From: a virus | IMG/VR virus record: IMGVR_UViG_3300047300_000501 | Location: 1 to 64,000 of that record | DNA length: 64,000 nucleotides | Strand: one strand, 5' to 3' | Part shown: piece by piece, positions 21,060 through 22,418 of the stretch | Position numbering within the stretch: the stretch's first letter is position 1 | Layout: every line of letters starts with the position of its first letter | Notes under the pieces: model-generated | Databases searched by the model: none | Seen by the model: only the letters and a program-made list of their open reading frames with translations | What the model was told of the DNA's origin: nothing | Position numbers and translations under genes: made by a program

Positions 21060-22418
21060 ATGTCAAAACAAGCAGGTAGAATGAGCCAGGGAGCAAATGA
21101 CTTCTTGGCACCGTACGCTCCAACAATTGGAACAGCAACCAACGTTCCAGCAGGAAGAGCATACAACAATGGACGGGTAGATGTAACATTTACTCCTGAC
21201 CCAATCAATGCAGCAACATCATTTACTGTGACATCTTCTCCTGGAGGTTATACTGCAACTGGTGCTTCTTCTCCAATTTCAGTTACAGGTTTACAATCAT
21301 CAGTGGCTTATACATTTACTGTTACAGCAACTAATGACGCAGGAACCTCAGCACCGTCTGCAGCATCAAATAGCGTTACAGCGACAACAGTCCCTGCAAC
21401 ACCAACTGCACCAAGTGCTTCTTCTCCGTCAGCAGGTGTAGACTCAGTTTCATGGTCTGCACCAGCAGATGGTGGATCAGCGATTACAAATTACCACTGG
21501 GAATCAAATGACTCAAAGTCAGGAGATACAGCATCTACATCAGTAAGCGTTGGACAGGAGCAGGGTACAGCACAGGCTTATCGTGTTTATGCAACAAATG
21601 CTAATGGTAACTCAGAATACTCTTCATACTCTGGAACAGTAACTACAACATTTTCATTTGTTCCATTTGGCGTGTTTGGTTTCTCACCATTTGGTTTCTC
21701 ACCATTTGGTTTTTCACCATTCTCATTCTCTCCATTTGGGTTCTCTCCGTTTGGGTTTTCTCCGTTCTCATTCTCACCATTTGGTTTCTCACCGTTCTCA
21801 TTCTCACCATTTGGATTTTCTCCTTATGGATTCTCTACAACAACATACGGTGTAAAGTGTATTGATGCTAATACATTTATTAGAGTAAAGACTGGACTTG
21901 GTGTCGAGTCTACTGATCCAGAAACTGGCAAGGTAACTCTTAAAGATGCATCAGGACAAGTAGTTGCTAAGCAAGCAAAAGATATTCAGGTTGGAGATAC
22001 AGTTCTTTCAGCAGACTATGCCGAAATTGACCCATCATCTCCAGATTACGAAGTCTTTAACTGGTCTTCTAACTCACTATCTTTTATTAATCACTCAGAA
22101 ACCACAATTACTGACATTGAAGAAACAAATAAGATTCAAACTATTTACTTCAATGGTGATCAATCAGCACAGTTTACATTAGAGCACCCAGTTCTAATTA
22201 AGAGAAATACTGCTGGAGCAATTAGTTATGGTTTTGCTATGGTTGCAGAAGTTCAGGTTGGAGATGCTATTCTAAAGTATAGCCCAACATCAAACTCATA
22301 TATTGAGACAGATATTACATCTATCGACATATCTTCTGGACAAAAGGTAGTCTATACTTTTAGCGCAGAACCAGCAGATCTTATTATTGCTGGTGACATC
22401 GTTACTCACAATAAGTAG
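21060..22418 (+). CDS. 2x fibronectin-III + (F[G/S]FSP)10 repeat + C-terminal Hint domain
   Basis: FN3 motifs VTGL..YTFTVTATNDAG and WSAPADGGSAITNY...RVYATNANG; Hint from C267 (21858) with FTLEHP, VYTFS, HNK. Confidence 0.85.
   Translation: MSKQAGRMSQGANDFLAPYAPTIGTATNVPAGRAYNNGRVDVTFTPDPINAATSFTVTSSPGGYTATGASSPISVTGLQSSVAYTFTVTATNDAGTSAPSAASNSVTATTVPATPTAPSASSPSAGVDSVSWSAPADGGSAITNYHWESNDSKSGDTASTSVSVGQEQGTAQAYRVYATNANGNSEYSSYSGTVTTTFSFVPFGVFGFSPFGFSPFGFSPFSFSPFGFSPFGFSPFSFSPFGFSPFSFSPFGFSPYGFSTTTYGVKCIDANTFIRVKTGLGVESTDPETGKVTLKDASGQVVAKQAKDIQVGDTVLSADYAEIDPSSPDYEVFNWSSNSLSFINHSETTITDIEETNKIQTIYFNGDQSAQFTLEHPVLIKRNTAGAISYGFAMVAEVQVGDAILKYSPTSNSYIETDITSIDISSGQKVVYTFSAEPADLIIAGDIVTHNK
21675..21824 (+). 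repeat. Ten tandem coding pentapeptides F[G/S]FSP
   Basis: 15-bp units with synonymous variation; flanked by variants FSFVP and YGFST. Confidence 0.95.

Follow-up and report, generated by a model that had tools for sequence, protein, structure and literature searches.

The gene P0001 (positions 21060–22418 of the window) encodes a protein of 452 residues in which two FN3 domains are followed by a Phe-rich repeat tract and a C-terminal Hint domain, as read from its open reading frame (ORF) and translation. We propose that the tract is a disordered, sticky tail of a tail-fibre partner protein that would be uncovered by self-cleavage of the Hint domain, a reading to which we give an even chance. 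The window consists of the first 64,000 nucleotides of the virus record IMGVR_UViG_3300047300_000501, a 74.2-kb IMG/VR record from a freshwater metagenome that is 68% complete, and all features of the window described below are located on the + strand. The virus is a siphovirus-type phage, with genes for a tape measure protein of 2310 residues, a portal, a prohead protease, a major capsid protein, a class II ribonucleotide reductase and a DnaE-type polymerase.

The aromatic tract and the terminal Hint domain of P0001

The aromatic tract covers residues 198–260 of the translated protein (21651–21839). It consists of FSFVP and FGV, ten F[G/S]FSP units, of which the fourth, seventh and ninth are FSFSP and the others FGFSP, and a final YGFST. 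Its 63 residues include 24 Phe, 15 Ser, 11 Pro, 9 Gly, 2 Val, 1 Tyr and 1 Thr, which corresponds to 38% Phe and 40% aromatic residues, and the tract is uncharged. In the translation, the tract is followed by a short spacer, TTYGVK (residues 261–266; 21840–21857), that ends at Lys266, the -1 position of the predicted scissile bond. An original prediction, made from the sequence of the window, had placed an array of ten such units at 21651–21857, directly before a Hint cleavage site. The coordinates are exact and the ten units are present, and the Hint domain does start at Cys267 (21858), but the six residues of the spacer separate it from the last unit.

The repeat is recorded both in the DNA and in the protein. 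Tandem Repeats Finder detected a 15-nt period over the tract with 73–74% matches, and the motif [FY][GS]FS[PT] occurs 11 times in P0001, while none of 20,000 shuffles of its sequence contained the motif more than twice. The mean pairwise nucleotide identity of the ten units is 75%, and only units 1 and 2 are identical in their DNA. Codon-pair comparisons between the units yielded 107 synonymous and 21 non-synonymous differences, the latter all between Gly and Ser. The tract is under selection at the level of the peptide and is not the product of fresh slippage, as had been suspected from the differing codons. In a relative with 94% identity, the number of units is the same while the FSFSP units are found at other positions, which shows that the units have been reshuffled with the peptide held constant. 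The other reading frames over the tract contain no more than short ORFs of 55 and 65 codons that derive from the repeat, and a scan of the tract region against Rfam gave no match. Contigs from other sequencing runs break within the repeat and provide no reliable reading of copy-number polymorphism.

In an AlphaFold2 (AF2) model based on 65 aligned relatives, residues 204–264 have predicted local distance difference test (pLDDT) values of 34–47 and no secondary structure, with flanking domains above 90; the tract is thus predicted to be disordered. A pentapeptide-repeat beta-helix of the A(D/N)LXX type was rejected, since P0001 has no match to the pentapeptide-repeat families in Pfam, the AF2 model shows no secondary structure and the unit length is not fixed at five in the relatives. 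A collagen-like helix, a polyproline II bundle and a beta-solenoid were likewise rejected as a shared fold, since periods of 3, 5, 6 and 8 residues all occur in the one family. The 2P+G value of the tract is 0.49, near the boundary between elastomers and amyloids that was reportedly proposed by Rauscher and colleagues in 2006. The mean Kyte-Doolittle value of 0.64 and the presence of a Pro at every five residues argue against a transmembrane helix. Transfer of the tract to a membrane interface was estimated at about -21 kcal/mol on the Wimley-White interfacial scale (Wimley and White, 1996).

The domains in front of the tract are well defined. A nearly invariant peptide, ANDFLAP (residues 12–18; 21093–21113), was recognized near the N-terminus from the alignment and the AF2 model: at least 90% of 65 relatives retain N13, D14, F15, L16, P18 and P21, and residues 9–16 are predicted to form a short helix. 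This peptide could be a docking element. The two FN3 domains (residues ~22–108 and 119–195; 21123–21644) were identified by Pfam (fn3, 35.3 bits, cut-off 25), by the AF2 model (pLDDT above 90) and by fold searches, with FN3 tandems recovered by both Foldseek and VIA.

The C-terminal domain extends from Cys267 to Asn451 (21858–22412), with a block B of T373-L-E-H376 and the ending H450-N451, and was assigned from VIA-align, a family profile and its motifs. In the translation, only Lys452 and the stop codon follow (22413–22418), and there is no C-extein to splice. Residues 264–452 are modelled with pLDDT values above 90, and VIA-align matched them to the Tetrahymena BUBL BIL2 domain (6tmm, Z 16.8), Hedgehog (1at0, 16.5), the NpuDnaB intein (4o1r, 16.3) and a bacterial intein-like (BIL) domain from C. 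thermocellum (2lwy, 16.0), with root-mean-square deviations of 2.1–2.4 Å over 132–139 residues; entries within about 1 Z unit of each other count as tied. A profile of 37 C-domains of the family, searched against the PDB, gave 2lwy as the best match (E 6.4e-7), followed by mini-inteins, and 13 of the 37 domains reach the Pfam family Intein_splicing on their own (best E 4.3e-8). P0001 itself is below the Pfam thresholds (Intein_splicing, E 0.008; Hint, E 0.013). A PDB search with the single C-domain sequence returned nothing useful and a profile was required, and Foldseek with the model of the whole protein retrieved FN3 tandems only, while the Hint fold was visible in the VIA-align search over all representatives. 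As modelled, the C-domain has a Hint fold, and the genuine Hint domain that the original prediction had seen after the tract is borne out by the profile match and the VIA Z values of 16–17.

The catalytic blocks of P0001 are intact, with Cys267 as Cys1, T373-x-x-H376 and the segments VYTFSAEP...IAGDIVTHN, and the ending HNK-stop, or HN followed by two to four residues including Lys, recurs among the relatives. Type-A BIL domains are defined by a C-terminal His-Asn and a non-nucleophilic +1 residue, and they chiefly yield cleavage products (PMC4031507). P0001 ends with H450-N451-K452-stop, whereas a canonical intein has a Cys, Ser or Thr at the +1 position of the extein and ligates its exteins; here, Lys452 alone follows Asn451. 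By the published definition, the C-domain would count as a type-A BIL-like domain with nothing to splice. No match to peptidase S74 was found with Pfam.

Relatives, Hint-less forms and a second Hint protein

We identified at least 2441 relatives of P0001 at E≤0.001 among 8000 candidates scored, and the family was confirmed at 558 places in IMG/VR. Statistics on the tract are based on 179 distinct relatives and those on the C-domain on 161 distinct C-domains, while the neighbourhoods were counted in 80 related loci, with the presence or absence of the Hint domain scored in 78. Neither a tblastn search with the P0001 protein nor a megablast search with 19000–29000 gave a match in the phage GenBank collection, and no description of the layout with FN3 domains, a Phe-rich tract and a terminal Hint domain in phages was found in the literature. 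The "Hint domain" in a paper on phiCbK was considered as a precedent and dismissed, as it is an ordinary terminase intein. A scan of genome contigs returned two full-length matches in genome bins, labelled Flavobacterium and Chitinophagaceae, which probably represent binned phage contigs. Outside the window, a WhiB-like match (G000:C1:69226–69291) in a frame of 276 codons is below the cut-off (E 4.4e-4, 17.5 bits) and at best a weak clue to the host.

An aromatic tract after the second FN3 domain is present in all of the 179 relatives, so the comparison of homologs suggested along with the original prediction found a repeat at this position every time. The tracts are 22–112 residues long (median 55), with a pooled composition of 36% Phe, 16% Gly, 14.5% Pro and 12% Ser, and Asp and Glu are essentially absent. 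In 93% of the cases, the spacing between aromatic residues is 2 or 3. The units themselves differ: FGF[ST]P or the 8-mer FGFSPFxV accounts for 165 proteins, [FY]x[FY][TV]P for 6, FGA for 4, FFxPPG for 2 and YNF for 2, and some tracts of the FGA type contain no Pro, Ser or Thr at all. Since one unit can replace another, it is the composition that is conserved, and not a folded repeat or a single recognition motif. Judged from these sequences, what the tracts have in common is a dense array of aromatic residues on small or proline spacers. In one locus (L080:7923–9607), two tandem FN3 genes with (YNF)n and (YSNF)n tracts lack both Pro and Gly, end in ...FSFYWFSR and have no Hint domain. In another (L029:2305–3637), a frameshift within the repeat divides the ortholog into two ORFs that overlap; this is either an assembly error or a pseudogene.

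The Hint domain is more variable in its occurrence. In 13 of the 78 loci, the gene encodes an intact form of 235–380 residues with its end immediately past the tract or past a short Cys-rich knob, and in these loci the next conserved gene starts within tens of bases. Many of the Hint-less forms end 1–7 residues past the last repeat with no terminal element. The tract is therefore the natural C-terminus of these proteins, as it was predicted to become in P0001 upon cleavage. At least 10 gains or losses of the Hint domain were counted on the FN3 tree. Taken together, the tracts in all 179 relatives, the natural Hint-less forms and the repeated changes in Hint content indicate that the functional product consists of the two FN3 domains plus the tail, and the comparison of sequences suggests that the Hint domain is a dispensable appendage that removes itself.

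Where the C-domain is present, its first residue is a nucleophile in 156 of the 161 domains (Cys in 125, Ser in 31), and in nearly all members this nucleophile is located 0–6 residues past the last aromatic residue. The Ser1 forms have the block-B His in every case, have lost the terminal Asn and end with HD, FD or YD. At the sequence level, this pattern is the signature of Hint domains that are restricted to N-cleavage, such as Hedgehog and the type-B BILs.

A search with a Hint profile against 1.84 billion representatives gave 2438 matches at E≤0.001, and representatives of the subfamily were defined at the 50% identity level. This Hint subfamily also occurs with other N-terminal domains. 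The domain start was complete in 83 of the top representatives. In 46 of these, aromatic residues make up at least 25% of the 45 positions ahead of Cys1, and in a further 14 at least 25% of this segment is Pro (VTP, PTAPVAA and PPPVAP types); new types of pre-Hint segments in the subfamily include FFPP and YFPP. As a general rule drawn from these sequences, an uncharged, hydrophobic, low-complexity tail rich in Pro or aromatic residues directly precedes the terminal phage Hint domain, with the Phe-rich form as the commonest. Five proteins of 850–1130 residues (P0263, P0252, P0256, P0270, P0207) have five to eight separate matches to the Hint profile each and may be poly-Hint proteins of a BUBL-like kind.

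The second Hint match in the record is the paralog P0122 (9318–10802), identified by Pfam and alignment, which contains a PASTA domain (35.8 bits, cut-off 23.2), three (VTP)n tracts parted by Cys-rich segments, and a Hint domain that ends with THNK. It is 60% identical to residues 256–452 of P0001, and the junction Y[GS]FSTTTYGVK|C, i.e. [11 protein letters not shown]|C, is common to both proteins. In a 76%-related phage, the equivalent of P0122 (L001:2–1378) has units of the FGFSP type in place of the last VTP tract. In the related phages, the paralog has an N-terminal part that is either PASTA-like or a large Ig-rich region, and it usually shares the tract type and the Hint type (or the Cys-knob ending) with the FN3 protein; concordant pairs of paralog and FN3 protein are FGFSPFxV with FGFSPFxV, YSFTP with FxFTP, and FFAPPG with FFxPPG. 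Such sequence patterns mark the tract and the Hint domain as a cassette. In locus L054, the Hint domains of both proteins start identically, which points to a recent gene conversion.

Both Hint proteins are associated with fibre-type genes. The gene directly upstream of P0001 (19207–21036) encodes a tail-fibre protein with an Mtd_N N-terminus (Pfam, E 1.7e-14; PHROG tail-fibre families) and the ending WLVFGDLSA, and a fibre gene occupies this position in 79 of the 80 loci. P0122 is preceded by a small fibre-type protein (8688–9311) that ends with WLLIGDLTA and was recognized by the resemblance of its C-terminal ~70 residues to the C-terminus of the fibre (E 0.003). Each Hint protein is thus located after a fibre-type gene with the C-terminal end WL[LV][IF]GDL[ST]A. 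The ~70-residue C-terminal domain of the fibres may be the docking site for the Hint proteins, and P0001 is probably a partner protein of the phage tail fibre.

Neighbouring genes and the oxygenases

The order of genes is strongly syntenic in the related loci: 14977, 15503, 16166, 16632, 18696, the fibre gene at 19207, the tract gene, variable genes of the 22424/23110/23805 type, 24533, 25195, occasionally 25839, the ribonucleotide reductase, 28842, 29388 and the portal. Three genes (22424–24557) separate the tract gene from the oxygenases in the window; two of them, 23110 and 23805, are paralogs (phrog_7084, weak Pfam match to DUF6065). Genes of the 23110 type were identified in 30 of the 80 loci and 22424 in 13, and a profile of the 22424/23110/23805 family gave no match in the PDB. 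The Pfam scan of the 19 neighbours (8688–33140) identified fibre-type proteins, proteins with no match, 2-oxoglutarate (2OG) oxygenases, a fusion of a glycosyltransferase with a cupin, and the ribonucleotide reductase. The latter, a class II (B12-dependent) enzyme (26811–28841), is placed between the fibre and enzyme block and the portal-capsid module; such an order of metabolic and structural genes is unusual, yet conserved in 59 of the 80 loci.

The product of 24533–25213 has the fold of a 2OG-Fe(II) oxygenase, resembling 2OG-FeII_Oxy_5, as assigned from fold searches and look-alikes in the Atlas, which carry PF13759 (2OG-FeII_Oxy_5; score 0.96). Its paralog, 25195–25857, is 44% identical (E 1e-53). 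No Pfam match was obtained in scans of the members of this family and no significant sequence-profile match in the PDB; they were identified by fold only. The AF2 model of the 24533 protein (pLDDT 74.7) matches 2OG oxygenases only, with VIA Z values of 14.3 for the uncharacterised 2rg4, 12.4 for both 4iw3 and 6f0w, 11.9 for PHD2, 11.4 for the collagen prolyl 4-hydroxylase (P4H) vCPH of PBCV-1 and 10.9 for PhyA of Dictyostelium, and Foldseek agrees. The two adjacent 2OG oxygenases of the original prediction are thus supported by their folds, and it is a fair guess from the models that they act on a protein prolyl substrate. A third oxygenase (28842–29372) belongs to 2OG-FeII_Oxy_3, a Pfam family of P4H type (PF13640, E 2.4e-12; phrog_61). 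Further upstream, a 2OG-FeII_Oxy_3 gene (12039–12632) is directly followed by an ORF (12620–14251) with a Glyco_transf_61 domain (Pfam, E 5.5e-12) and a C-terminal cupin domain (E 2.8e-5).

The "GT60-like" enzyme named in the original prediction could not be established. The gene in question (25839–26714) is a possible glycosyltransferase by a weak match to the Pfam family GlcNAc (PF11397, E 0.0011, 19 bits with a cut-off of 21), its profile gave no match in the PDB and it is present in only 13 of the 80 loci.

A proposed tail uncovered by self-cleavage and the alternatives

In the proposed series of events, Cys267 would make an N–S acyl shift at the Lys266-Cys267 bond after translation, and the thioester would be resolved, most simply by water. 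Cyclisation of Asn451 would release at most the single Lys452. With the departure of the Hint domain, the mature protein would end ...[16 protein letters not shown], at Lys266. The exposed tail, with an aromatic residue at every two to three positions on Gly/Ser/Pro spacers, would then constitute a multivalent strip of "stickers", which may stick to further copies of itself or else to a surface that is hydrophobic or interfacial. P0001 would reside in the virion with its N-terminus docked and its tail distal, and this adhesive tail could bind to the envelope of the host, at the distal end of the fibre, or alternatively to a groove on the virion. The Pro and Gly residues would keep the tail out of a fixed fold or amyloid, and the Hint domain, as long as it is uncut, would cap this otherwise very aggregation-prone segment and help it as a handle during folding, to be removed afterwards.

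An FG-like tip that associates with itself or binds to an interface fits best among the three readings offered in the original prediction, because the composition, the predicted disorder and the manner in which the units vary all agree with it. Like the FG-nucleoporins, the tract would be a disordered segment of low charge with Phe stickers on spacers of Gly/Ser/Pro type, and FG, FSFG-like and GFS motifs are literally present. Unlike in the nucleoporins, the density of Phe is about three times higher, there are no hydrophilic spacers of 10–20 residues, there is no homology and the context is viral and extracellular. The likeness is thus an analogy of material properties alone.

Several observations weigh against an adhesive tail released by the Hint domain. 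About 75 of the 125 Cys1 forms have Gln or Glu in place of the block-B His, and their cleavage rates may be low. In P0122, (VTP)n replaces the aromatic units ahead of a near-identical junction and Hint domain, which shows that the Hint domain does not need an aromatic tract. The Cys-rich knob in some of the Hint-less forms means that the tract is not always the extreme C-terminus and could be a linker. The AF2 model is that of a monomer, and an ordered oligomeric structure of the tract remains compatible with it. As to the host, the PASTA domain of P0122 points to a Gram-positive wall, and the only two full-length matches in genome bins carry the labels Flavobacterium and Chitinophagaceae.

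The tract could also be a scaffold for modification, in which the [S/T/A/V]-Pro units are hydroxylated by the 2OG oxygenases of the phage, and in some lineages glycosylated, to give a surface polymer like that of extensins, arabinogalactan proteins (AGPs) or PBCV-1. We consider this rather unlikely as the function of the tract, although it is compatible with a sticky tail and could exist alongside it. Among characterised structures, the folds of 24533 and 25195 are nearest to protein P4Hs, and in 59 of the 80 loci the tract gene has an oxygenase of the 24533 type directly downstream. In three phages (L054:10835–19900, L065 and L075), FF[AS]PPG tracts with 31–33% Pro are immediately followed by 6–8 tandem genes of the 2OG-FeII_Oxy_3 type; these tracts contain Pro-Pro-Gly, the classical substrate of collagen P4H. 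Pure FGA tracts, which are free of Pro, have no oxygenase gene in the locus, and the (VTP)n module of P0122 is followed by the 2OG-FeII_Oxy_3 gene and the GT61-cupin fusion.

The whole region is syntenic in this group of phages, however, which makes the neighbourhood weak evidence. FxFTP tracts (19% Pro) occur with no oxygenase in the locus, while one YNF tract, which has no Pro, does have one. An association between tract chemistry and oxygenase content was not counted in support of modification, since only 2–3 phylogenetically independent contrasts were available (sign test, p≥0.5) and the oxygenases are located elsewhere in two sister records: the same family was found about 45 kb from the tract gene in the L045 record and, in one copy, about 37 kb away in the complete 109-kb record L060. 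The look-alike clusters with PF13759 in the Atlas are phage-wide, and oxygenases of the 24533 kind also occur in phages that lack such tracts. The match of the putative glycosyltransferase falls short of the Pfam cut-off, and the gene is found in a minority of the loci. As in PBCV-1 with its vCPH (5c5t) and in the X-Pro glycomodules of plant extensins and AGPs, [S/T/A/V]-Pro repeats are found near 2OG oxygenases of a P4H-like fold; the differences are that the phage enzymes are loosely linked to the tract, that Pro-free variants exist and that aromatic residues dominate, which is unlike any hydroxyproline glycoprotein module that we know of. Of the hydroxylation-glycosylation scaffold in the original prediction, the two oxygenases are thus supported by their folds. 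The oxygenases are unlinked in sister phages and some tracts are free of Pro, Ser and Thr, and hydroxylation is therefore not the reason for the tract across the family. Hydroxylation of the tract in individual clades is a doubtful possibility.

The tract as a plain spacer, an elastic and protease-resistant linker to a real tip that is either the Hint domain or the Cys-rich knob, with the catalysis of the Hint domain vestigial or regulatory, appears distinctly unlikely to us. It would explain why the same Hint subfamily has non-aromatic, Pro-rich linkers at this position (VTP, PTAPVAA, PPPVAP, IIATP), why some of the Hint-less forms end with a knob and why the length of the tract is free to vary from 22 to 112 residues. 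Yet a content of 36% Phe under purifying selection (107 versus 21 differences) would be needless in a spacer, the nucleophile has been retained in 156 of the 161 C-domains, and many of the Hint-less forms stop within a few residues of the last repeat.

It is most unlikely, in our view, that the (thio)ester of the Hint domain is resolved by a nucleophile on another molecule, an amine or hydroxyl group on a virion protein, on peptidoglycan or on a lipid, with the C-terminus of the tail becoming covalently anchored. We attach equally little credence to a form of this reading in which the Hint domain acts as a single-use ligase, with the (thio)ester at the end of the tail attacked by an amine or hydroxyl group of the host envelope and the adhesin tethered covalently. 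The acceptor may then be an amine of a peptidoglycan stem peptide held by the PASTA or FN3 domains, or a residue on the conserved C-terminal domain of the fibre. Such transfer would be consistent with BUBL BIL2 and Hedgehog as the top fold matches, with the PASTA domain in P0122, as PASTA domains bind muropeptides bearing free amines, and with the pairing of every Hint protein with a fibre-type gene with a conserved C-terminal domain. Against it, there is a single Lys and no adduct-recruiting region past the Hint domain, the Hint-less forms work without such chemistry, and the fold matches are tied in rank and silent on the acceptor. If it were true, the Hint domain would represent Hedgehog- or BUBL-type transfer used for virus assembly or irreversible adsorption, with the tract placing the scissile bond at the target surface.

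The least likely reading, to which we assign a nearly negligible probability, is the third one in the original prediction, a multi-core precursor of ribosomally synthesised and post-translationally modified peptides (RiPPs), from which ten pentapeptides would be excised and tailored. Near-identical short units adjoining oxygenase genes are the sole point in its favour. Leader, recognition and protease sites are all lacking between the abutting units, they drift in length between 3, 5, 6 and 8 residues, and they are located between folded FN3 and Hint domains in a conserved gene of the fibre module. No maturase, peptidase or exporter family of RiPP systems was found among the 19 neighbours scanned with Pfam.

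With regard to the tail uncovered by self-cleavage, we compared the proposed arrangement to known systems. Type-A BIL domains, reportedly described by Amitai in 2003 and Dassa in 2004, share with P0001 the Hint fold, Cys1, a block B of T-x-x-H, the terminal His-Asn and the non-nucleophilic +1 residue, as well as the expected preference for cleavage over splicing and a carrier that is a variable protein of surface or secreted type rather than a conserved enzyme. The Hint domain of P0001 differs in being terminal, with one Lys after the Asn, in being encoded by a phage in genes for fibre partners, in almost always following an uncharged low-complexity tract of aromatic residues or proline, and in having sister clades with Ser1 and no terminal Asn that resemble type-B BILs and Hedgehog. 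In Hedgehog itself, the Hint domain is likewise C-terminal and severs itself from an N-terminal extracellular signalling or adhesion part via a (thio)ester at its first residue, and the sister forms with Ser1 and no Asn are predicted to be limited to the N-terminal reaction in the same way. Hedgehog attaches cholesterol and the BIL domains of Tetrahymena BUBL conjugate to lysines, whereas P0001 has neither a sterol-recognition region nor a sign of an adduct, and its cargo ends in a Phe-rich repeat. The peptidase S74 chaperones of endosialidase and T5 pb1 type are similar in that a C-terminal domain of a protein from the fibre region of a phage is removed by autoproteolysis after a role in folding or assembly. 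They use a Ser-Lys dyad as opposed to the Cys1 and Asn of the Hint domain, the folds are unrelated, and there is no sign that the Hint domain trimerises its cargo.

C-terminal domains that remove themselves are thus a known principle in phage fibres, and in P0001 a domain of intein or Hedgehog type would do the job. The segment that would be uncovered is a strip devoid of charge with a Phe at every second or third residue, of a kind that has not been described for viruses. Should the tract prove to be a substrate of the neighbouring oxygenases, this would possibly be the first protein prolyl hydroxylation in a tailed phage. The family also offers a natural, compact, terminal Hint domain for protein engineering, and it could serve to test how cells produce and cope with a low-complexity segment of extreme stickiness. 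Aquatic phages have the layout in abundance, and a common but unstudied device for adsorption or assembly may be hidden there.

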